Shown: piece by piece, positions 1 through 8,054 of the stretch | Numbering within the stretch: the first letter of the stretch is position 1 | Layout: every line of letters starts with the position of its first letter | Sequence record: LC788706.1 | Source: Escherichia coli phage KS_S14 | DNA: 64,000 bases | Direction: 5' to 3' (one strand) | Made by a program: the position numbers and the translations under genes | The notes under the pieces: generated by a model | What the model was told of the DNA's origin: nothing | Seen by the model: only the letters and a program-made list of their open reading frames with translations | The model's database searches: none

Positions 1-170
1 CTTTTGACGGTGATCACATTCCACTAGAACAATTATCCTGTGATTACATGATATTGAAGAACTTTGACGAGACAAAGATCTCAAGCGTTTATAATCGACA
101 GAATCCATTAACGTGGAAATATAAGAAGAAAAAGAAAGGCATCAAATTCTTAAAAAATGTAGTTGCTTAG
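1..170 (+). CDS. hypothetical protein, 3' fragment (gene starts upstream of window)
   Basis: Open frame from window edge to TAG at 168-170; Lys-rich C-terminus. Confidence 0.3.
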   Translation, partial: FDGDHIPLEQLSCDYMILKNFDETKISSVYNRQNPLTWKYKKKKKGIKFLKNVVA

Positions 171-219
171 TTTCCAAAAGTTCTATATAATAATTACATA
201 AATTGAACTGGAGAAGCTA

Positions 220-411
220 ATGAAACGATTAGTTAGATTTAAGTGTTGTGGTTCTGAGCATATTTTTACACATCTTCGTGAATTTAAAATGTGTGATTGT
301 GGTAAATCAGGCTATGACGCAGGGGACGGGTTCTATACACGTACTCTAGGGAACTTCAATGATTTAGAGTTTGAAGATCTCGAAAAACAAGATAAATCGA
401 CCGTTGGCTGA
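220..411 (+). CDS. small Cys-rich protein (possible zinc ribbon)
   Basis: 63 aa ORF with GGAG RBS upstream; CC..CDC motif; 3' end overlaps tRNA-Cys. Confidence 0.45.
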   Translation: MKRLVRFKCCGSEHIFTHLREFKMCDCGKSGYDAGDGFYTRTLGNFNDLEFEDLEKQDKSTVG

Positions 412-473
412 ATGGCTTAGGCGAAGGATTGCAAATCCTTTTTATGTGAGTTCAAATCTCATGCGGTCGTCCA
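398..473 (+). tRNA. tRNA-Cys (anticodon GCA)
   Basis: Hand fold: 7-bp acceptor cgaccgt/gcggtcg, anticodon stem aagga/tcctt with loop ttGCAaa, T-arm gtgag-ttcaaat-ctcat, encoded CCA. Confidence 0.65.
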
Positions 474-492
474 ATTTTTAAGGATATAAGTA

Positions 493-1011
493 GTGCACAA
501 AAAAGTCTTTGATAATTTACTAAAGAGAGGTTTTGTTACAATCGAACCCTTCTCTATAACCACAGAACTAATACAAAGATTTATGGAAGAGTATATAAAT
601 CTTACTGGTACTAGTGGGAATATTAAAAAGAACACAAATACTTTATACGCAAGAAAACTTGCAGCACTATCATTCATAAAGTTTAAGCAAGAAAATAAAC
701 TACCTATTTCTGAAGGTTTTGTATACTGTATTAGTAATCCTGCATGGAAAAATCAGTATAAAATAGGTATGAGTCAAAATCCAAAAGAGAGATTAGCTCA
801 ATATCAGACTTATTCCCCTTATAGGGATTATAAGTTAGAGCATTGGTCTTTTTGGTTTGACAAACGAAAAGGTGAAAAACTAATTCACCAGTATTTCAAA
901 GATTTAAAAGAACATGAGTGGTTTAGTATAAATTCTAGGGATCTTAGTAAATATCTAGAACGTATTAACTCTAGTTCTGACTTATATGGTTCCTTAGCTC
1001 TAATTGGTTAG
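493..1011 (+). CDS. T5orf172-family (GIY-YIG-like) protein, putative homing-endonuclease-like
   Basis: 172 aa; block EGFVY.I.NPAW...YKIGM...ERL..YQTYSPYRDYKL...EWF shared with paralog 2766..3239. Confidence 0.6.
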   Translation: MHKKVFDNLLKRGFVTIEPFSITTELIQRFMEEYINLTGTSGNIKKNTNTLYARKLAALSFIKFKQENKLPISEGFVYCISNPAWKNQYKIGMSQNPKERLAQYQTYSPYRDYKLEHWSFWFDKRKGEKLIHQYFKDLKEHEWFSINSRDLSKYLERINSSSDLYGSLALIG

Positions 1012-1065
1012 AGCGGCATCTTGTTAAGTTGAGGGTTGCTGGTTCGAATCCAGCAGGAACCGCCA
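988..1065 (+). tRNA. tRNA, probably Asn (anticodon GTT), anticodon stem imperfect
   Basis: Acceptor ggttcct/aggaacc, T-arm gctgg-ttcgaat-ccagc, CCA encoded; anticodon loop ttGTTaa with two stem mismatches. Confidence 0.5.
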
Positions 1066-1167
1066 AATTCTGTGTAGAGTTAAGTAAACCGGTAGCCAAC
1101 CAGCTATCATTGCTGACATCGAATTCAGCCACAGATACCATTTTCATTAATAACTGAGAAAACAAGC

Positions 1168-1353
1168 ATGTCCAAGAATGTAATTGCACAGTTAGAAGTT
1201 CATCGTGATAGCACTATCAACAATATTGAAGTTGAGAAGAAATACATCGAAGAACTTAAACATGATATACTAGTAAGTCTTAATCGTCTTAATGTACGAA
1301 AAGAGTTTCTTAAAGAACTTAATGCAGCTATTGAGAAACTCAAAGCTGAATAA
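1168..1353 (+). CDS. hypothetical small coiled-coil protein
   Basis: 61 aa ORF between two tRNA genes; weak RBS. Confidence 0.35.
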   Translation: MSKNVIAQLEVHRDSTINNIEVEKKYIEELKHDILVSLNRLNVRKEFLKELNAAIEKLKAE

Positions 1354-1362
1354 ACAGATCAT

Positions 1363-1439
1363 GCGACCGGGGCTGGCTTGGTAATGGTACTCCCCTGTCA
1401 CGGGAGAGAATGTGGGTTCGAATCCCATCGGTCGCGCCA
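1363..1439 (+). tRNA. tRNA-Asp (anticodon GTC)
   Basis: Acceptor gcgaccg/cggtcgc, anticodon stem ctccc/gggag with loop ctGTCac, T-arm gtggg-ttcgaat-cccat, CCA. Confidence 0.7.
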
Positions 1440-1465
1440 AACTAAACTAGCACGAGAAATATGCT

Positions 1466-1813
1466 ATGATTAATGCTAAAGAAGAATTGTTACTTGCCCT
1501 AAAGAATACTAATTCTGAAGTTAAGTGTATTAAGATAGAATTCGGTTATTATGGGGACAAAGAAGTTTGGGTATTACCCGTAGGTTATACAGAAAAAGAT
1601 ATTGAAGATTTTCTAAATAATCTAGACTTTAAATATGATTCTGGTTTCGGCGGACAATTGCTTTATGGTAACGTATGGTTTACTGATGGAACTTGGTTAG
1701 AACGTGGTGAATATGATGGTTCTGAATGGTGGGAGTACAAGACTACACCAGCAATCCCTGAAGAATGCCGAACAATTAATGGTGAAGTAGATAATACTTT
1801 ACGATTAAACTAA
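1466..1813 (+). CDS. hypothetical protein
   Basis: 115 aa ORF, protein-like composition, no recognised motif. Confidence 0.45.
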   Translation: MINAKEELLLALKNTNSEVKCIKIEFGYYGDKEVWVLPVGYTEKDIEDFLNNLDFKYDSGFGGQLLYGNVWFTDGTWLERGEYDGSEWWEYKTTPAIPEECRTINGEVDNTLRLN

Positions 1814-1935
1814 TAAAATTTCAGTGCAGAACACGGAGCTAGCAATTCGGAAGTGCTGACTCATGATAAGCTGCCTATGTACTTGCGAAGCGGTCGTGTC
1901 CAAGACTCGGACTCTTGCACTGAAAACAATCAAAC

Positions 1936-2055
1936 ATTCTAGCGTGGTTGATGGGGAAACCAGCTTGGCGAGGGCAGAAGCTCGTTCGATTCGAGTGAAA
2001 GAATGGTTCTCGTAAGTCCGCACAAGTGATAACAGGTTCGAGTCCTGTCTAGAAT
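1936..2055 (+). ncRNA. tRNA-like structured RNA candidate with two T-arm-like hairpins
   Basis: 7-bp terminal pairing attctag/ctagaat encloses hairpins ctcg-ttcgatt-cgag and acagg-ttcgagt-cctgt; no canonical cloverleaf; lies in a 370-nt ORF-free gap. Confidence 0.3.
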
Positions 2056-2205
2056 GACACTATAAAGTTTACTTATTATGTAGGTTCCGATAGATCGGCG
2101 GGTCTATTCTGGCATTTAAGAGAGGTCTCGCAAACTTCTTTGTCAGCCGTGGGGTTCATAGCCTCCAGGTGGCCTACACAATAAGTAAATTTATTAAAAA
2201 TTCAT

Positions 2206-2234
2206 TTGCTATTCTGCTTAATTATCCGTATAAT
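2206..2234 (+). promoter_or_regulatory. sigma70-type early promoter (TTGCTA-17-TATAAT)
   Basis: Consensus -35/-10 with 17-bp spacer and AT-rich upstream. Confidence 0.6.
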
Positions 2235-2266
2235 ATATTTTATAAAGTGAAGAGAAGGAAAGCAAA

Positions 2267-2425
2267 ATGAAACACAAGATAGCTCAAGTTTTTATGGCAT
2301 TATGGTGTATGCCAATAGCTATAACAGCATTTAATCTAGATACTTTTACTATAGAAGAAAAATGTATCGGATTAGTTAGCGGCTTTAGTATGCTGGGCTT
2401 ATCTTTGTTGTGGTTGAAGAAATAA
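2267..2425 (+). CDS. small membrane protein (52 aa)
   Basis: ATG 33 nt after promoter -10 with GAAGGA RBS; hydrophobic; below ORF-track cutoff. Confidence 0.35.
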   Translation: MKHKIAQVFMALWCMPIAITAFNLDTFTIEEKCIGLVSGFSMLGLSLLWLKK

Positions 2426-2429
2426 TATT

Positions 2430-2507
2430 CTCCGTGTAGCTCAGTTTGGCCAGAGCGTTTCGTTTGGGGCGATAGGGTCGGGGGTTCAAATCCTCCCACG
2501 GAGACCA
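2430..2507 (+). tRNA. tRNA-Pro (anticodon TGG)
   Basis: Acceptor ctccgtg/cacggag, anticodon loop ttTGGgg, T-arm ggggg-ttcaaat-cctcc, CCA. Confidence 0.55.
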
Positions 2508-2513
2508 AACAAT

Positions 2514-2591
2514 TGCGGGTTAGATCTCTGGTAGAGATCGCTAGTCTCATAAGCTAGAAAGAGGTAGGTTCGATTCCTGCACCCGCTTCCA
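2514..2591 (+). tRNA. tRNA with CAT anticodon (Met or Ile2)
   Basis: Anticodon stem ctagt/gctag with loop ctCATaa, T-arm gtagg-ttcgatt-cctgc, CCA; 1-72 mismatch. Confidence 0.5.
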
Positions 2592-2611
2592 TTTTAATAG
2601 AGGATTTCGAA

Positions 2612-2776
2612 ATGAAAGTATTTCGATTAGTAGTAAGTGACAAACGGTCAGGTAAGAATACATCAAAATCCTTACTTGCCCATTATGGTAAAAATTGGGA
2701 TGAAGTAATGGCAGAGTTTAATACTAATCACCCTTACTTGAAAGTTCACTCTATTAAGGAAGTTTATGCTTATTAA
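2612..2776 (+). CDS. small hypothetical protein (54 aa)
   Basis: ATG with GAGGA RBS; stop overlaps start of next gene. Confidence 0.35.
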   Translation: MKVFRLVVSDKRSGKNTSKSLLAHYGKNWDEVMAEFNTNHPYLKVHSIKEVYAY

Positions 2777-3239
2777 CAGGGTGCTTCAAGCTCTAGATCT
2801 TCCAGAGCTCTTTACTATTACCGACCCCTTAATACATCGGTATATGGAAAAGTATAATGAAATCTCTGGTAAAAAAGGGAAACTAAAATCCTCAGAATTT
2901 AAGTTCTGTTATAGAATGGCAGCATTAAACCTCTTAAAGTACAAGAGGGAGCATAAAATCCCTATAACAGAAGGATTTGTCTATGTAATAGGTAATCCAG
3001 CATGGCCTGGACTATATAAGATAGGTATGACAGTAGATGTGAATGAAAGACTGTCTAGTTATCAAACATATTCGCCTTATCGTGATTACAAGTTATACCA
3101 TTTCAGATTCTCCTCGGACAAGAGAAGAACTGAAAAAGCATTACATAACCTTCTGAAGGACTACAAAGTATCAGGAGAATGGTTTGAAGTACCTCTGTTA
3201 GACGCCTTCAAACTATTAGTAGAAAATTTGGATTGCTAA
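2766..3239 (+). CDS. T5orf172-family (GIY-YIG-like) protein, paralog of 493..1011
   Basis: 157 aa; shares N- and C-terminal blocks with 493..1011; 3' end overlaps tRNA-Lys. Confidence 0.6.
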   Translation: MLINRVLQALDLPELFTITDPLIHRYMEKYNEISGKKGKLKSSEFKFCYRMAALNLLKYKREHKIPITEGFVYVIGNPAWPGLYKIGMTVDVNERLSSYQTYSPYRDYKLYHFRFSSDKRRTEKALHNLLKDYKVSGEWFEVPLLDAFKLLVENLDC

Positions 3240-3307
3240 CTCAACTGGATAAGAGTACCGGACCTTTAATCCGTCAGTTCTGGGTTCGAATCCCAGGCAA
3301 TCCACCA
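3230..3307 (+). tRNA. tRNA-Lys (anticodon TTT), tentative
   Basis: Acceptor ggattgc/gcaatcc, T-arm ctggg-ttcgaat-cccag, CCA; anticodon loop ccTTTaa with C at position 33. Confidence 0.5.
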
Positions 3308-3325
3308 ATTTCAAGAAAAACTCAG

Positions 3326-3354
3326 TTGCTTGATGCTTAATTTCTTGTTATAAT
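3326..3354 (+). promoter_or_regulatory. sigma70-type early promoter (TTGCTT-17-TATAAT) driving a non-coding transcript
   Basis: Consensus hexamers followed by ATAAATTGATGAGGAGAG box. Confidence 0.6.
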
Positions 3355-3361
3355 ATTTATA

Positions 3362-3592
3362 TAAATTGATGAGGAGAGATCCTCATCATAGTTCACTAAG
3401 GTATTAGCTCGACCTAGGACTGGCTGCCAAAAAGCACGATCCCTACGATTCGGGAGAAGTTCTAGATTAGTCCACTAGATTCAGCGGCAACTGAATAGTG
3501 TATTGGGTTTGCGAGATGACGCAGTTCCTTCCGCTCGAAGCGAAGGTGCTGTAGTTACGCCGAGCTAATAGCCTTAGTAAACTAAAGAATTT
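3362..3592 (+). ncRNA. promoter-driven structured RNA candidate upstream of tRNA-Ala
   Basis: Starts with perfect 7-bp hairpin gatgagg/cctcatc after the promoter; no ORF with RBS; further hairpins; ends at tRNA-Ala. Confidence 0.35.
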
Positions 3593-3671
3593 GGGGAATG
3601 GGTCTGCATGGAGTGGACACCTCGCTTGCACCGAGGACATCAGAACGGTTCGATTCCGTTATTCTCCACCA
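3593..3671 (+). tRNA. tRNA-Ala (anticodon TGC)
   Basis: Acceptor ggggaat/attctcc, anticodon stem cctcg/cgagg with loop ctTGCac, T-arm aacgg-ttcgatt-ccgtt, CCA. Confidence 0.6.
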
Positions 3672-3676
3672 AATAC

Positions 3677-3753
3677 GCGTGATTGATGGAATTGGCATAC
3701 ATACCGTCCTTAGAAGTCGGGTTTTGAGGGTTCGAATCCCTTGTCACGCACCA
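3677..3753 (+). tRNA. tRNA with TAG anticodon (Leu-type) but short variable region, atypical
   Basis: Acceptor gcgtgat/gtcacgc, T-arm gaggg-ttcgaat-ccctt, CCA; anticodon loop ctTAGaa; irregular D region. Confidence 0.45.
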
Positions 3754-3878
3754 AATTTGATGGTCAGAGTAAATTAAACCTACTATCTCGGTTGAGCTGT
3801 TTTAATGGGTTCGAATCCCAGCGAGGCGTAACTGCCTGGTGTGATAGAGGCATCATTCCACTAACATTGGAAAAACTA

Positions 3879-4109
3879 ATGAAACGAAAATTAAAAAAGT
3901 CTTATATAATTAAGATAAATAAGCTACGAAGTAGGGCAAAAGGATGGCCACTTCGAATATTAATTGCGGATAACCATACTAGATACCATGCGGAACAACG
4001 TCATTACAAACAGTGGGAGTCATACTGCCGCTCAAAAGCAGGTCGTTTAGATGGATCTTATGAGTTTCTATTTGGTAAGAAGCCTACTAGAGTAGCTTTA
4101 GGTAATTAG
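3879..4109 (+). CDS. small basic protein (76 aa)
   Basis: In-frame ATG inside ORF-track entry 3741..4109, whose upstream part is tRNA-like sequence; Lys/Arg-rich. Confidence 0.35.
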   Translation: MKRKLKKSYIIKINKLRSRAKGWPLRILIADNHTRYHAEQRHYKQWESYCRSKAGRLDGSYEFLFGKKPTRVALGN

Positions 4110-4114
4110 TACTT

Positions 4115-4205
4115 GGAAGAGCAAATCGAATTGGCGACGAAAACCGCTTGGAAAGTGGCTGACTGGTAAAACGGCTTGAGAGTTCAAATCTCTCCTCTTC
4201 CGCCA
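4115..4205 (+). tRNA. tRNA-Ser (anticodon GGA), class II
   Basis: Acceptor ggaagag/ctcttcc, anticodon loop ttGGAaa, long variable arm, T-arm gagag-ttcaaat-ctctc, CCA. Confidence 0.55.
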
Positions 4206-4217
4206 AACAATTTATAT

Positions 4218-4312
4218 GGTAGGTCAATCCAACGGCTGGCGCTGGACTCCGACTTGAAATCGGTTGATCGTAGTGATACGGTGTAAGGGTTCGATCCCCT
4301 TACCTACCTCCA
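4218..4312 (+). tRNA. tRNA-Ser (anticodon TGA), class II
   Basis: Acceptor ggtaggt/acctacc, anticodon loop ctTGAaa, long variable arm, T-arm aaggg-ttcgatc-ccctt, CCA. Confidence 0.55.
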
Positions 4313-4315
4313 AAT

Positions 4316-4451
4316 CTTGGAATATGCCGGAATTGGTAGACGGGACTGCCGAATAGGTTTACTAGGAACATCCACTCCTAGAAATATACCTTAAAAGCGG
4401 TTGAGTTAAATGGTCTAACTCATGAAGGTTCAAGCCCTTCTATTCCTTGAT
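4316..4451 (+). ncRNA. unresolved tRNA-like element (possibly class II tRNA with insertion)
   Basis: Leu-like D-loop gaattggtagac, hairpins ctagg/cctag and gagtta/taactc, perfect T-arm gaagg-ttcaagc-ccttc, no CCA; cloverleaf not resolved by hand. Confidence 0.3.
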
Positions 4452-4562
4452 ACATCAATGGCTCAAAGTGTAACGGTGCTATTTGATGCTCTTGGAAAGA
4501 CTTTCCCGACATGCGTTCGGGGGTAAGCTTCTGAGGCTAGAATAGAAGAGTTTCTGAGAGCC

Positions 4563-4682
4563 GCCACAATTGAAAATTCGTACTCGTCTTGAGCTGCGTG
4601 CAATAGGAGATAACTTGATTAGTATTCTAGAACATGCTAATTGAGGATGGTTTCGCTAACCCTGCGAGTTTTCAATTGTGGC
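4563..4682 (+). ncRNA. long-range stem structure (14-bp perfect inverted repeat) abutting tRNA-His
   Basis: gccacaattgaaaa at 4563-4576 pairs with ttttcaattgtggc at 4669-4682, enclosing about 90 nt; 3' arm overlaps tRNA-His 5' end. Confidence 0.3.
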
Positions 4683-4754
4683 TATATCATAATTGGTTAA
4701 TGATCCTGATTGTGAATCAGGCCTATGTGGATTCGAATTCCACTAGCCACCCCC
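4678..4754 (+). tRNA. tRNA-His (anticodon GTG)
   Basis: Acceptor gtggcta/tagccac, anticodon stem cctga/tcagg with loop ttGTGaa, T-arm gtgga-ttcgaat-tccac. Confidence 0.65.
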
Positions 4755-4780
4755 AAATTAACTTAAATAGGAAATAAAAT

Positions 4781-4981
4781 ATGGCTGATTTCTGCAAACA
4801 ATGCTCCATTGATATGTGGGGTAGAGATACTGGCGACTTATCTGGTCTGATTACAGAAGCCGAAGTCAAAGAAGGTTATGGTGCAGTTGTGGTTTGCGAA
4901 GGATGCGGAGTCATTCGAGTAGATCATGAAGGTAAGCGCCTTGAAGAACCTGAGCCAACCGCAATGGTTCCTGTAGAGTGA
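4781..4981 (+). CDS. small CxxC protein (zinc-ribbon-like)
   Basis: 66 aa; CKQC and CEGCG motifs; RBS present. Confidence 0.45.
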   Translation: MADFCKQCSIDMWGRDTGDLSGLITEAEVKEGYGAVVVCEGCGVIRVDHEGKRLEEPEPTAMVPVE

Positions 4982-4982
4982 A

Positions 4983-5564
4983 ATGAAATTAGAGAATTTT
5001 AAAGTAATCCCAGAATATCCAGAATACTTAATCTCTCCATATGGAGAGGTTTACTCTACTAAGAGTAATAAACTACTTACACATCATTTAGGCAGTGCAG
5101 GATACCCGTTTGTAACGTTCTATGAACAGGGTAAGAATGTTTCTGTTGTATTGCATAGATTATTGGCTAGAGTATTTAAAGATTTACCTTCGCTAGAATC
5201 TGAACTAGAGGTGGATCACAAAGATAGGAATAAATTGAACTTTACCCTAGATAATCTAGTTGTCATGACCAAGGAAGATCACAGAGTAAAAACTACACTT
5301 GAAAGAGGGCATACAGTAGGTGGTAGTAAATGTCCTTATTGTAATAAACAAATAAATTCTTCATCTAAAACTTGTTTTGATTGTAAACCTAAGAGTAGCC
5401 CTGATATTACAGCAGAGCAAATAGAATATTGGGTAATAAACTATTCATGGGTTAAAGCATCAAAAGAGCTGGGACTATCTGATAATGGTCTACGTAAACG
5501 TTATAAATCCTTAACAGGTAAAGATCCAAAAAGTATTAAGAAGAAGGTTAGCCAAGTCGGTTAA
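4983..5564 (+). CDS. HNH homing endonuclease
   Basis: 193 aa; EVDHKDRNKLNFTLDNL HNH motif and C-terminal CxxC..CxxC; 3' end overlaps tRNA-Gln. Confidence 0.65.
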   Translation: MKLENFKVIPEYPEYLISPYGEVYSTKSNKLLTHHLGSAGYPFVTFYEQGKNVSVVLHRLLARVFKDLPSLESELEVDHKDRNKLNFTLDNLVVMTKEDHRVKTTLERGHTVGGSKCPYCNKQINSSSKTCFDCKPKSSPDITAEQIEYWVINYSWVKASKELGLSDNGLRKRYKSLTGKDPKSIKKKVSQVG

Positions 5565-5617
5565 GGCTGGGGTCTCTGAAATCCTGATCAGTGGTTCGAA
5601 TCCACTACCTTCTGCCA
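5542..5617 (+). tRNA. tRNA-Gln (anticodon CTG)
   Basis: Acceptor agaaggt/accttct, anticodon loop ctCTGaa, T-arm agtgg-ttcgaat-ccact, CCA. Confidence 0.55.
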
Positions 5618-5623
5618 AACAAT

Positions 5624-5701
5624 TGGGGATTAGCTTAGCTTGGCCTAAAGCTTCGGCCTTTGAAGTCGAGATCATTGGTTCAAATCCAATATCCCCTGCC
5701 A
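5624..5701 (+). tRNA. tRNA-Gln (anticodon TTG)
   Basis: Anticodon stem tcggc/gtcga with loop ctTTGaa, T-arm attgg-ttcaaat-ccaat, CCA; 1-72 mismatch. Confidence 0.55.
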
Positions 5702-5708
5702 AATAATC

Positions 5709-5784
5709 GCGGTTAAGCACACGGGTTGTGCCGCAGGCCTTCCAAGCCTCGCTGAGTAGGGTTCGATTCCCTCTAGCCGCTCCA
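5709..5784 (+). tRNA. tRNA-Gly (anticodon TCC)
   Basis: Acceptor gcggtta/tagccgc, D-stem gcac/gtgc, anticodon loop ctTCCaa, CCA. Confidence 0.6.
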
Positions 5785-5800
5785 ACTTTAAGGAAACACT

Positions 5801-6022
5801 ATGCACGTTTTTGAGTTTCGTAATAAGAGTACTGATAAGCGAGTTATCATTATTGGAGAAACATATCGAGCATATGAACAAACTGACGGCTCTGTTATCT
5901 TGAATGATGAGAAAGGAGGTTTTAGCTTTTATCCAGAAGAAACGTATGAAGAATTTCGTACTAAGTTTCTTTTACCAGACTGGCTAGCAGTAGCCGAGCA
6001 ACGAGAATCCGAAGATGGCTGA
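5801..6022 (+). CDS. hypothetical protein
   Basis: 73 aa ORF with AAGGAAA RBS. Confidence 0.5.
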   Translation: MHVFEFRNKSTDKRVIIIGETYRAYEQTDGSVILNDEKGGFSFYPEETYEEFRTKFLLPDWLAVAEQRESEDG

Positions 6023-6179
6023 TAACCTAAAATTAAAGGTTGACAAACAAAAGAAATACGTTGAGATTGAATTAGGCGAAGAACGCTTAAAGCTAACTTT
6101 CGAGTTTCTTCAGCAGTTGGCAATGACAGTAATGTCAGATAAATCCCCTGTATTTGAAAAAGAAATTCCGTTGAAATAA
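6015..6179 (+). CDS. small hypothetical protein (54 aa)
   Basis: ATG overlaps stop of upstream gene; below ORF-track cutoff. Confidence 0.35.
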   Translation: MADNLKLKVDKQKKYVEIELGEERLKLTFEFLQQLAMTVMSDKSPVFEKEIPLK

Positions 6180-6189
6180 CGGGTTTATT

Positions 6190-6264
6190 GCTCCTAAAGC
6201 ATTGCTGGTGATGCAGTTGCCTTGTAAGCATCTGAACCGGGTTCGATTCCTGGTGGGAGCACCA
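6190..6264 (+). tRNA. tRNA-Thr (anticodon TGT)
   Basis: Acceptor gctccta/tgggagc, D-stem gcat/atgc, anticodon loop ctTGTaa, T-arm ccggg-ttcgatt-cctgg, CCA. Confidence 0.6.
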
Positions 6265-6279
6265 AATTTAAAAATTCAT

Positions 6280-6308
6280 TTGCTTTCTCTCTTATTTATT
6301 GCTATAAT
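6280..6308 (+). promoter_or_regulatory. sigma70-type early promoter (TTGCTT-17-TATAAT)
   Basis: Consensus hexamers; downstream ATAAATTAATGAGAGG box then RBS and ATG at 6339. Confidence 0.6.
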
Positions 6309-6338
6309 ATTTATATAAATTAATGAGAGGGAAACCAA

Positions 6339-6629
6339 ATGAAACGTTATCTTTCTGTAGTATTCCAAACTGGTGGCCAAAGGTACACCTATGAATTTCC
6401 ATCTTCTTGGAAAATCAAAGAGGGTGATCAAGTAGTAGTGCTAACACCGCGTGAAGGATATAAAGTAGTAACGGTTAAACAAGTATTTCCAAAAGATCAT
6501 GAACCAGCTAAAGGCATCCGCTATAAGATGATTCATGGTGTGGTTCGTCAAGTACCACGAACTGAGGTAGAAGTAGATAAGGCTGGAGAAACTAAATTCC
6601 ATTATACTTCTTACTTAGACAGTGTGTGA
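6339..6629 (+). CDS. hypothetical protein
   Basis: 96 aa ORF immediately after consensus promoter. Confidence 0.5.
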   Translation: MKRYLSVVFQTGGQRYTYEFPSSWKIKEGDQVVVLTPREGYKVVTVKQVFPKDHEPAKGIRYKMIHGVVRQVPRTEVEVDKAGETKFHYTSYLDSV

Positions 6630-6644
6630 TGTAAATATTTTAAT

Positions 6645-6721
6645 GCTTCGGTAGCTTAGCGATCTAAAGCACTCGGCTGATAACCGAGAGATCGGGGGTT
6701 TAAATCCCTCCCGGAGTACCA
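6645..6721 (+). tRNA. tRNA-Ile (anticodon GAT)
   Basis: Acceptor gcttcgg/ccggagt, anticodon stem ctcgg/ccgag with loop ctGATaa, T-arm ggggg-tttaaat-ccctc, CCA. Confidence 0.65.
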
Positions 6722-6818
6722 AATTTAGGAATTAAGACTATGCGTCCAGGAAAGTTTAAAAAAAGCTAATTGGTCTAAAGAGTATAAAGAATACTTACTT
6801 AGTCTAGTAAAACATAAC

Positions 6819-6894
6819 AGTTAGTTGGCAGAGTGGTTATGCACCTCCTTCATACGGAGCGACTACAGTGGTTCAAATCCACTACTAACTACCA
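6819..6894 (+). tRNA. tRNA with CAT anticodon (Met or Ile2)
   Basis: Acceptor agttagt/actaact, anticodon stem ctcc/ggag with loop ttCATac, T-arm agtgg-ttcaaat-ccact, CCA. Confidence 0.55.
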
Positions 6895-6931
6895 TTAAAA
6901 TAGCTAGAGATAGCTAAATTTAGGAGCAGCT

Positions 6932-7126
6932 ATGTTAACAATTAAAATAATGTCAGCCAAGAATGGTGAACATATCCATACGGGCAAAAGCGTAAGCTTT
7001 AATCCTAGAAATAAGAGATTGGCTATAGTTGGAGTAGATCAAGCCATCTTTTTAAAAGAAGATGAAGTAGCATACGTCATGAACCAAACTGGTAAGACAG
7101 TTTCCGTATACTATGGAAAAGTATAA
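6932..7126 (+). CDS. hypothetical protein
   Basis: 64 aa ORF with AGGAG RBS. Confidence 0.45.
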   Translation: MLTIKIMSAKNGEHIHTGKSVSFNPRNKRLAIVGVDQAIFLKEDEVAYVMNQTGKTVSVYYGKV

Positions 7127-7168
7127 AGAATAAAGAGCTGAGCCAAATTCTAACATCGGGGAGATCTA

Positions 7169-7537
7169 ATGAAAGCATATCAAAATCTTAAATCTGGCGT
7201 AATTAACCTTGTTCATGAAAATCAGATTATTCAGCTATATTCCGACAACGGTGAACTTAAACAGAAAGTTCTAGTTGAAGATCTAGAAGGTATCACACCA
7301 CAATTCGATCCTGAAGCCTTCCGTGAAGTTAAGGTGGAAGTCGCCCCTCAAATCGAAGGTGGTCAGCACCTAAATGTCAATGTGTTAAGCCGTGATCAGC
7401 TTTTGGATGCGCAGAAACATCCTGAAAAATACCCTCAATTAACTATCCGTGTTTCAGGGTACGCTGTGCGTTTTAACGCACTGACGCGTGAACAGCAGAA
7501 CGACGTTATTAGTCGTACATTTACTCAGGCGATGTAA
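7169..7537 (+). CDS. grcA: autonomous glycyl-radical cofactor (GrcA/YfiD-like) protein
   Basis: 122 aa; C-terminus [10 protein letters not shown]...[23 protein letters not shown] matches the glycyl-radical signature RVSGYAV of GrcA. Confidence 0.7.
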
Positions 7538-7618: not shown

Positions 7619-7933
7619 GTGGATCGAGCATTAAGACGTCATCACCGGCAACGTGTAAAGAACAACCGCAAGAAGTATTGGACAGTCTTCCCACATGAAG
7701 AAAGCCCTAAACGGTTAGGTATTATCACTACTACTCCTTGTATCTGTTCTTGTTGGATGTGCGGGAATCCTCGCAAATACTTTAAGAATAGTAAAGCAGG
7801 GATGAAAACCTCGGAGATTAGGAAAATGGAAGCAATGATTACGGATATTTCAAATGATGAATTTGATGGCTTTGTAGGATTCGGAGAAGGAATTAGCTCA
7901 GGCTGTTTCGAAGATGTACGCCCCGATTTGTAA
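7619..7933 (+). CDS. hypothetical Cys-rich protein
   Basis: 104 aa ORF, probable GTG start; followed by terminator. Confidence 0.4.
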   Translation: MDRALRRHHRQRVKNNRKKYWTVFPHEESPKRLGIITTTPCICSCWMCGNPRKYFKNSKAGMKTSEIRKMEAMITDISNDEFDGFVGFGEGISSGCFEDVRPDL

Positions 7934-7944
7934 TTAATAACAAA

Positions 7945-7978
7945 CCCCAGCTATTGAATAGGTAGTCTGGGGTTTTTC
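7945..7978 (+). terminator. rho-independent terminator
   Basis: Stem ccccag...ctgggg followed by T5 run. Confidence 0.6.
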
Positions 7979-8054
7979 TGTATACAGGTAGATAATTTAT
8001 GTATAATAAAATTCATCCACATTAGGTTAATTTAAAAAACTTAATGGAGGTAAT

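Follow-up and report, generated by a model that had tools for sequence, protein, structure and literature searches.

The region examined here is the early transfer RNA (tRNA) cluster of a Tequintavirus-type (T5-like) genome. It lies at the start of a 64,000-nt stretch of DNA from Escherichia coli phage KS_S14 (LC788706.1), the whole of which is called the window below, and contains three nuclease genes whose 3′ ends run into the tRNA gene that follows. ARAGORN called 14 tRNAs in the first 7 kb, with 5′ ends that agree with those from Rfam, and the gene order of the tRNA region agrees with the T5 reference annotation. The first 8 kb are matched by 577 related phage records, nearly all from T5-like phages of Escherichia, Salmonella and Klebsiella, and none of the 577 reaches 99% identity across the whole stretch. 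Gene presence in these records was counted at full length. For comparison, a conserved neighbouring gene served to locate and fetch 22 T5-like contigs, which together with the window make 23 loci; labels such as L002, L007 and L016 denote fetched loci, and L036 is the T5 record. The genes and promoter-like sites of the three nuclease regions in the window lie on the plus strand.

Nuclease genes and their tRNA neighbours

The first of the three genes, nuclease A (493..1011, 172 aa), is the ortholog of T5.069. It is preceded by a conserved tRNA-Cys(GCA) gene (398..473) and runs into a tRNA-Asn(GUU) gene (988..1065), a 78-nt allele whose Rfam score of 55 bits marks it as a genuine tRNA-Asn; both tRNAs were found with ARAGORN and Rfam. 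Nuclease B (2766..3239, 157 aa) was identified with Pfam, PHROG and BLASTP. The final 11 nt of p2612, a conserved 54-aa open reading frame (ORF) on its left (2612..2776), overlap its start, and on its right it meets a tRNA-Lys(UUU) gene (3230..3307; ARAGORN, Rfam) with the anticodon loop C32-C33-UUU. The third gene (4983..5564) encodes an HNH endonuclease. It stands between a conserved 66-aa ORF (4781..4981) and two tRNA-Gln genes, tRNA-Gln(CUG) (5542..5617; ARAGORN, Rfam), which looks intact at 57 bits, and tRNA-Gln(UUG) (5624..5701).

Nucleases A and B had been recognized as paralogs from the sequence-only reading, and the comparison bears this out. BLASTP aligned them with 50% identity over 139 aa (E=2e-46), both belong to PHROG 5032, and both exceed the Pfam gathering thresholds of 20 bits for T5orf172 (PF10544) and 22.3 bits for MUG113 (PF13455), nuclease A with 47.7 and 59.5 bits and nuclease B with 54.7 and 69.9 bits, respectively. 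A database search for relatives of the T5orf172 ORFs returned only 27 clusters, all of 159-186 residues. The GIY and YIG motifs, one Arg and two Glu are invariant, and G75, Y78, K90, G92, R100, E128, E142 and W143 are fixed in 28 sequences. An AlphaFold model on the family alignment, with a predicted local distance difference test score (pLDDT) of 89 and a predicted template modelling score (pTM) of 0.83, places an N-terminal three-helix domain before an alpha/beta domain with the GIY-YIG fold. By profile, motif and modelled fold, nucleases A and B are members of the T5orf172/GIY-YIG superfamily and predicted nucleases. These ORFs are already annotated in some GenBank records, either as "putative homing endonuclease" or as "GIY-YIG nuclease family protein", the former being the annotation of nuclease B in the record of phage IrmaTschudi.

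The assignment of 4983..5564 as an HNH gene was also correct, as Pfam matches it to HNH_3 and NUMOD4. Nucleotide comparison with T5 hegD gave 92.8% identity (96% at the amino acid level), and the gene has the same position, between the T5.062 homolog and tRNA-Gln(CUG), with the same 23-nt overlap with the tRNA; nothing essential differs. Judged by sequence and position, ORF 4983..5564 is the ortholog of F-TflII (hegD), an enzyme already characterized in T5. The pairwise ratio of nonsynonymous to synonymous substitution rates (dN/dS) is 0.04-0.13 across the three nuclease ORFs (0.04 for nuclease B and 0.05-0.13 for the HNH gene) and 0.07 for a neighbouring core ORF, which indicates that the nuclease ORFs are under purifying selection and that their proteins are maintained like a core protein and are not decaying.

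Replacement cassettes and linked tRNA alleles

The three nuclease genes are sporadic among close relatives, each at one locus with conserved flanks, as expected of homing genes. Of the 577 records, 81 contain nuclease A, 85 contain nuclease B and 18 contain the HNH gene. Among the 22 T5-like contigs, seven of the eight possible combinations of presence and absence were seen, and the window alone has all three genes. Pairwise alignments revealed that each nuclease ORF forms a replacement cassette with its own downstream tRNA allele or alleles, with sharp borders in the conserved flanks. The three cassettes assort independently. A simple insertion/deletion polymorphism was rejected, because the nuclease-less phages hold a different tRNA allele and no empty site. 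In all 22 fetched loci and the window, a nuclease gene is accompanied by its private, divergent tRNA allele without exception; the combination of a nuclease with the alternative allele was found in none of these 23 loci, and the counts across the collection agree.

Cassette A is the segment that is replaced in phages without nuclease A (478..1062). On the left, homology to the nuclease-less loci stops at 477-483; on the right, the BLAST alignment restarts in the common T-loop at 1041, and full identity begins directly after the CCA end of the tRNA. Where nuclease A is present, the tRNA-Asn is always the 78-nt allele starting GGTTCCTTAGC; where it is absent from the fetched loci, the tRNA-Asn is always an 83-nt allele starting GGGTCGTTAGCC, located after a spacer of 7 or 152 nt. 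Across the collection, 133 records have the nuclease-A-linked allele and 285 the other one. The alternative tRNA-Asn (e.g., L002:9259-9341; 59 bits in Rfam) has a 13-nt variable region, which is atypical for tRNA-Asn. The 152-nt spacer (L002:9107-9258), which lies between tRNA-Cys and tRNA-Asn in many phages without nuclease A, folds stably, at about −41 kcal/mol; it was considered as a decayed nuclease gene or a known RNA, and both were rejected, since it gave no hidden Markov model (HMM) signal and no Rfam match.

In a second genus, a T5orf172 homolog in Klebsiella phage Sugarland precedes the same tRNA-Asn allele (96% identical) with other neighbours and in another reading frame. Among the distant members, Sugarland alone has this allele, and the tRNA-Asn of four metagenomic lineages is only 65-72% identical. 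Deep co-inheritance of nuclease and tRNA-Asn was therefore rejected, and co-inheritance beyond the Demerecviridae is unsupported.

Cassette B spans about 2767-3307. In the phages that carry nuclease B, the tRNA-Lys(UUU) always starts GGATTGCTA, and this allele is found in 86 records, against the 85 that have nuclease B. In the phages that lack the gene, the left-flank ORF (54-55 aa) ends 0-1 nt ahead of a tRNA-Lys starting AGATCGCTAGC; the exceptions are T5, which has a third allele, and L007, in which the tRNA is chimeric. Cassette C spans about 4983-5701 and includes both tRNA-Gln genes, since the HNH gene brings its own alleles of tRNA-Gln(CUG) and of tRNA-Gln(UUG), so that HNH-bearing and HNH-less phages differ in the second tRNA too. 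Of the 31 records with the linked allele of tRNA-Gln(CUG), 18 have an intact HNH gene and some of the others have deletion remnants of it (e.g., L016, L022). The T5 copy of this allele (L036 3845-3920; 29344-29419 in the T5 record) is flagged as a pseudogene by RefSeq, so the linked tRNA is not always kept functional.

The same rule applies to further pairs in the fetched loci, namely T5orf172 paralogs before tRNA-Glu, tRNA-Leu(UAG) and tRNA-Arg(UCU), and HNH genes before tRNA-Asp and tRNA-Gly; in some phages the linked allele of such a pair persists without the nuclease. We did not find a one-to-one coupling of nuclease and private tRNA allele in the literature searched.

From the letters alone it had been proposed that the nuclease genes mobilize around tRNAs, with a comparison of the tRNA islands of related phages as the check. 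In that comparison the ORFs were not at identical positions in all relatives, and the sporadic, freely combining cassettes that include the tRNA agree with the proposal for the three nuclease genes. The fourth ORF grouped with them, 220..411, is a different case. It encodes a small Cys-rich protein of 63 aa (PHROG 7042), in which Pfam and PHROG scans found no nuclease signature and only a DUF7695 match below the cut-off. Phages that have this ORF and phages that lack it share one tRNA-Cys allele, and where the ORF is missing it was simply deleted in frame, so it was rejected as a fourth cassette. In L003, L004, L006, L007 and others, the precise deletion leaves a 10-codon mini-ORF, which retains the start codon and the stop inside tRNA-Cys.

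Stop codons inside the tRNA genes

Each of the four ORFs ends within the next tRNA gene, as the sequence-only reading had noticed; with the tRNA 5′ ends placed by ARAGORN and Rfam at 398, 988, 3230 and 5542, the overlaps in the ORF list are 14, 24, 10 and 23 nt. The TGA of ORF 220..411 lies 14 nt inside tRNA-Cys. Nucleases A and B had been thought to end in the acceptor stem, which is close for nuclease B, whose TAA occupies tRNA positions 8-10 right past the stem, and incorrect for nuclease A, which reads across the stem to a TAG (1009-1011) in the D-arm. The HNH gene also reads across the acceptor stem, and its stop (TAA, 5562-5564) lies in the D-arm. The first 23 nt of tRNA-Gln(CUG) thus encode the tail and stop of the HNH ORF, and the first 24 nt of tRNA-Asn encode the tail GSLALIG and stop of nuclease A. 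This tail is unchanged although the rest of the protein falls to about 80% identity, a visible constraint of the tRNA on the gene end that had been anticipated.

The layout is specific to the nuclease genes and occurs more often than expected by chance. In the 23 loci, the stop lies inside the tRNA in all 10 distinct nuclease-tRNA pairs (five T5orf172 genes and five HNH genes, 8-39 nt inside) vs 3 of the 17 other ORF-tRNA pairs (Fisher p=3.4e-5); the remaining 14 of these stop 0-21 nt before the tRNA, and the 3 that overlap include ORF 220..411. HNH genes that lie away from the tRNA cluster lack a tRNA neighbour of this kind. When all fetched loci, including six distant metagenomic contigs, were searched with an HMM of the T5orf172 subfamily, 31 ORFs were found. 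Each of the 31 precedes a tRNA, at no more than 51 nt in 30 cases, and in 27 the stop codon falls within that tRNA. So strict an association of the small T5orf172 subfamily with tRNAs was not found in the literature searched. In L002 (11729-12115) and also in L009, a 128-aa ORF with an HNH motif, which is counted among the five HNH genes and adds another nuclease type with this layout, precedes tRNA-Ala(UGC) and stops 10 nt inside it.

The transcription units in which the nuclease genes sit, flanked by tRNAs, begin at sites that correspond to promoters annotated in T5. The site at 163..191 (TTGCTT, 17 nt, TATAAT) was read from the sequence, coincides with promoter P14b in the T5 annotation and would head orf0, tRNA-Cys, nuclease A and tRNA-Asn; it is absent from the output of the consensus promoter scan, and its role as a promoter is putative. 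The promoter-like site at 2206..2234 (10 of 12 consensus matches) has the position of T5 promoter P13a and would head p2267, tRNA-Pro, tRNA-fMet, p2612, nuclease B and tRNA-Lys. No promoters of their own were recognizable for the nuclease genes, and the consensus scan found fewer sites than shuffled controls. In transcripts of such a unit, RNase P cutting at the 5′ end of the tRNA would therefore sever the stop codon from the nuclease message.

The closest functional parallel, by analogy of arrangement, is SegB of phage T4, a GIY-YIG homing endonuclease encoded among the clustered tRNA genes of that phage (Brok-Volchanskaya et al. 2008, PMC2330249). SegB cuts the tRNA genes of phages that lack it and is co-inherited with the neighbouring tRNA genes (PMC2330249). 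Maturation of tRNA-Arg cuts between the last codon of segB and its stop, which has been proposed to limit expression, and the same limit is thought to apply to the F-Tfl genes of T5 (PMC2330249). Association with tRNAs is widespread among the homologs of SegB (PMC13096335). The likeness is that a free-standing nuclease gene lies in a tRNA cluster with its stop at or inside the next tRNA, and that phages with and without it differ in the flanking tRNA genes. However, the paralogs here are of the T5orf172 branch and have a C-terminal nuclease domain (residues 75-158) behind the three-helix domain, and judged by Pfam alone they do not belong to the SegB family, as their matches are solely to T5orf172 and MUG113. 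Each cassette here also swaps one or two tRNA alleles, not a multi-gene block. The F-TflII enzyme, the nuclease/tRNA type of mobile element and the idea of an expression limit are thus already known from the SegB and F-Tfl precedents (PMC2330249).

T5 offers a further likeness in hegC, which ends 14 nt inside tRNA-Ser(GGA). The nuclease domain of A and B is the one found in the T5orf172 genes of ICP1 and other phages, and T5orf172 homing genes have been described as abundant in T5-like phages and as lying on the borders of genetic exchange (Barth et al. 2023, PMC10448857). The tRNA mentions retrieved from that study do not concern T5orf172 genes, whereas here all 31 members of the small subfamily (157-188 aa) precede a tRNA. 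The HNH gene resembles the I-HmuI-type nickases in that HNH_3, its Pfam match, is grouped with I-HmuI in the His-Me finger classification, but it is free-standing and not intron-encoded. A more distant likeness is the tRNA punctuation of mitochondrial transcripts, reportedly described by Ojala and colleagues in 1981, in which processing is said to set the mRNA ends in a polycistronic precursor. There, processing and polyadenylation complete the stop codons, whereas here processing would remove the stop. F-TflII has been reported to make single-strand breaks (PMC6105707).

Homing as a probable explanation and its alternatives

We suggest, with a probability of roughly 70%, that the three loci are free-standing homing endonuclease cassettes in polycistronic tRNA units, which spread together with a tRNA allele and whose expression may be limited by RNase P. 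The population pattern is what is observed; cleavage of tRNA-gene DNA by the nucleases and homing in mixed infection are what we infer from it. In a mixed infection, the nuclease would cut or nick the homologous region of the nuclease-less phage, most likely within the alternative tRNA allele or beside it, and repair templated by the nuclease-bearing genome would copy the nuclease and the tRNA together by gene conversion. The private tRNA allele plausibly confers self-immunity and would render the carrier uncuttable. If RNase P cuts at tRNA position +1, the nuclease mRNA would lack a stop codon, so that released protein would come only from unprocessed transcripts and a potentially toxic nuclease would stay scarce. 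The overlap might also weld the nuclease to its own tRNA allele. By analogy with SegB, a regulatory role of the overlap can be put forward tentatively, at a little less than even odds.

Several points weigh against this interpretation. Three of the 12 T5orf172-subfamily lineages do not overlap the tRNA (−9, −51 and −164 nt) and the non-nuclease ORF 220..411 does, so the overlap is neither necessary nor exclusive. HNH nickases of the I-HmuI type are able to cut both alleles, and for cassette C an immune allele is therefore not strictly needed. Tight physical linkage alone would also hold a nuclease and the adjacent tRNA allele together.

One alternative is that the targets lie outside the tRNA, for example at a junction of the upstream ORF or spacer with the tRNA that is destroyed by the insertion, and that the tRNA alleles are passengers of the conversion tract that confer no immunity. 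Free-standing phage endonucleases often cut away from their insertion point, the cassette borders lie in the flanks and not at a point within the tRNA, and hitch-hiking needs no selection because the linkage distance is zero. In T4, the co-conversion promoted by SegG reportedly starts at a cut far from the segG gene (PMC2330249). However, T4 SegB recognizes tRNA gene sequence (PMC2330249), a nuclease next to the alternative allele was not seen in the 23 loci or suggested by the counts across the collection, and the linked tRNA-Gln alleles persist in L016 and L022, in which the HNH gene is deleted, which is what a role of the allele itself would predict. We consider this alternative somewhat unlikely.

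The overlap itself might be a by-product of genome compaction with no regulatory role. The 5′ parts of tRNAs are rich in stops (U8-A9-G10 reads TAG), so an ORF that loses its own stop would run only a few codons further, into the tRNA, without any cost, and positions 8-10 hold the stop in several HNH genes as well as in nuclease B and Sugarland gp162. In line with compaction, the non-nuclease ORF 220..411 overlaps its tRNA, three T5orf172 lineages do not, and the intergenic spacers of the whole cluster are only 0-15 nt. The tails encoded by the tRNAs are not part of the Pfam domain and are modelled with low pLDDT. Yet under equal compaction the great majority of the non-nuclease ORFs stop before the tRNA and every nuclease ORF inside it, and the overlap recurs in unrelated nucleases, namely T5orf172, I-HmuI-like HNH and 128-aa HNH proteins and T4 SegB (PMC2330249). 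We consider compaction an unlikely explanation.

A third possibility, that each locus holds two old haplotypes shuffled by ordinary recombination and that the T5orf172 proteins have ceased to act as mobile nucleases and been domesticated to bind DNA or RNA (e.g., as regulators or tRNA-related factors), would suit the strict tRNA association of the subfamily, a dN/dS as low as that of a core gene and the domestication of T5orf172-type nucleases in a phage satellite of ICP1 described in one report (PMC8096241), but it is very improbable given that the catalytic GIY-YIG residues are invariant in 28 members, that the genes are patchy across genera and in seven of the eight cassette combinations, that decayed or deleted copies beside retained tRNA alleles fit a homing cycle of gain and loss, and that purifying selection is expected for active selfish nucleases as well.

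If each nuclease gene of the T5-like phages carries its own tRNA allele, selfish genes would set which tRNA variants a phage has and how fast they spread between phages, and such coupling would explain the mosaic tRNA clusters of this much-used group. The consistent stop-in-tRNA layout is also a simple test case for RNA processing as a throttle on a toxic gene. For annotation, "hypothetical proteins" of the T5.069 type can become putative tRNA-associated T5orf172 homing endonucleases.

It has been shown that the tRNA-Lys of T5 neutralizes PARIS (PMC11464382) and that SegB amplifies tRNA genes to escape Septu (PMC13096335). One might speculate that the cassettes are drive-plus-cargo modules, in which the nuclease gives super-Mendelian spread and the linked tRNA allele alters the sensitivity to tRNA-cleaving defences such as PARIS, PrrC and retron Eco7, although we regard this as distinctly unlikely. 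An example may be the tRNA-Lys(UUU) with C33 and an altered anticodon stem. If the idea were true, homing nucleases would swap and spread anti-defence tRNA alleles among T5-like phages with RNase P as a built-in governor, and the T5orf172 subfamily would be specialized for tRNA genes.

The nuclease-B-linked tRNA-Lys has the loop C-C-UUU-A-A, with C33 (about 3264) instead of the nearly universal U33. The C33 allele is also present in L013, L014, L015, L018 and L037, and the alleles of T5 and of phages without nuclease B have U33. Since the T5 tRNA-Lys is a known anti-PARIS factor, the C33 variant may matter for defence evasion.

Some further observations concern the cluster as a whole. Compared with L002-L017, the window is a mosaic over 1-7200, in which the best-matching relative varies by segment (e.g., L017 with 99% at 3326-3856 and L013 with 98% at 4312-4957) and several of the switches fall at the cassettes. 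Positions 5709-5784 differ from T5 tRNA-Gly1(UCC) by a single mismatch, and at about 4116-4205 there is a sequence resembling tRNA-Ser(GGA). Both are uncalled by ARAGORN and by Rfam at the gathering threshold, so the tRNA or tRNA-like genes of the window number more than 14. Among the fetched contigs, the tRNA-Glu of L011 (about 7933-8026) is 94 nt long because some 19 nt of its T-arm region are duplicated internally, and a phage tRNA-Trp in L014 (8416-8492) has a single C-to-T change that gives the anticodon CUA and, judged by its sequence, could be an amber suppressor tRNA.

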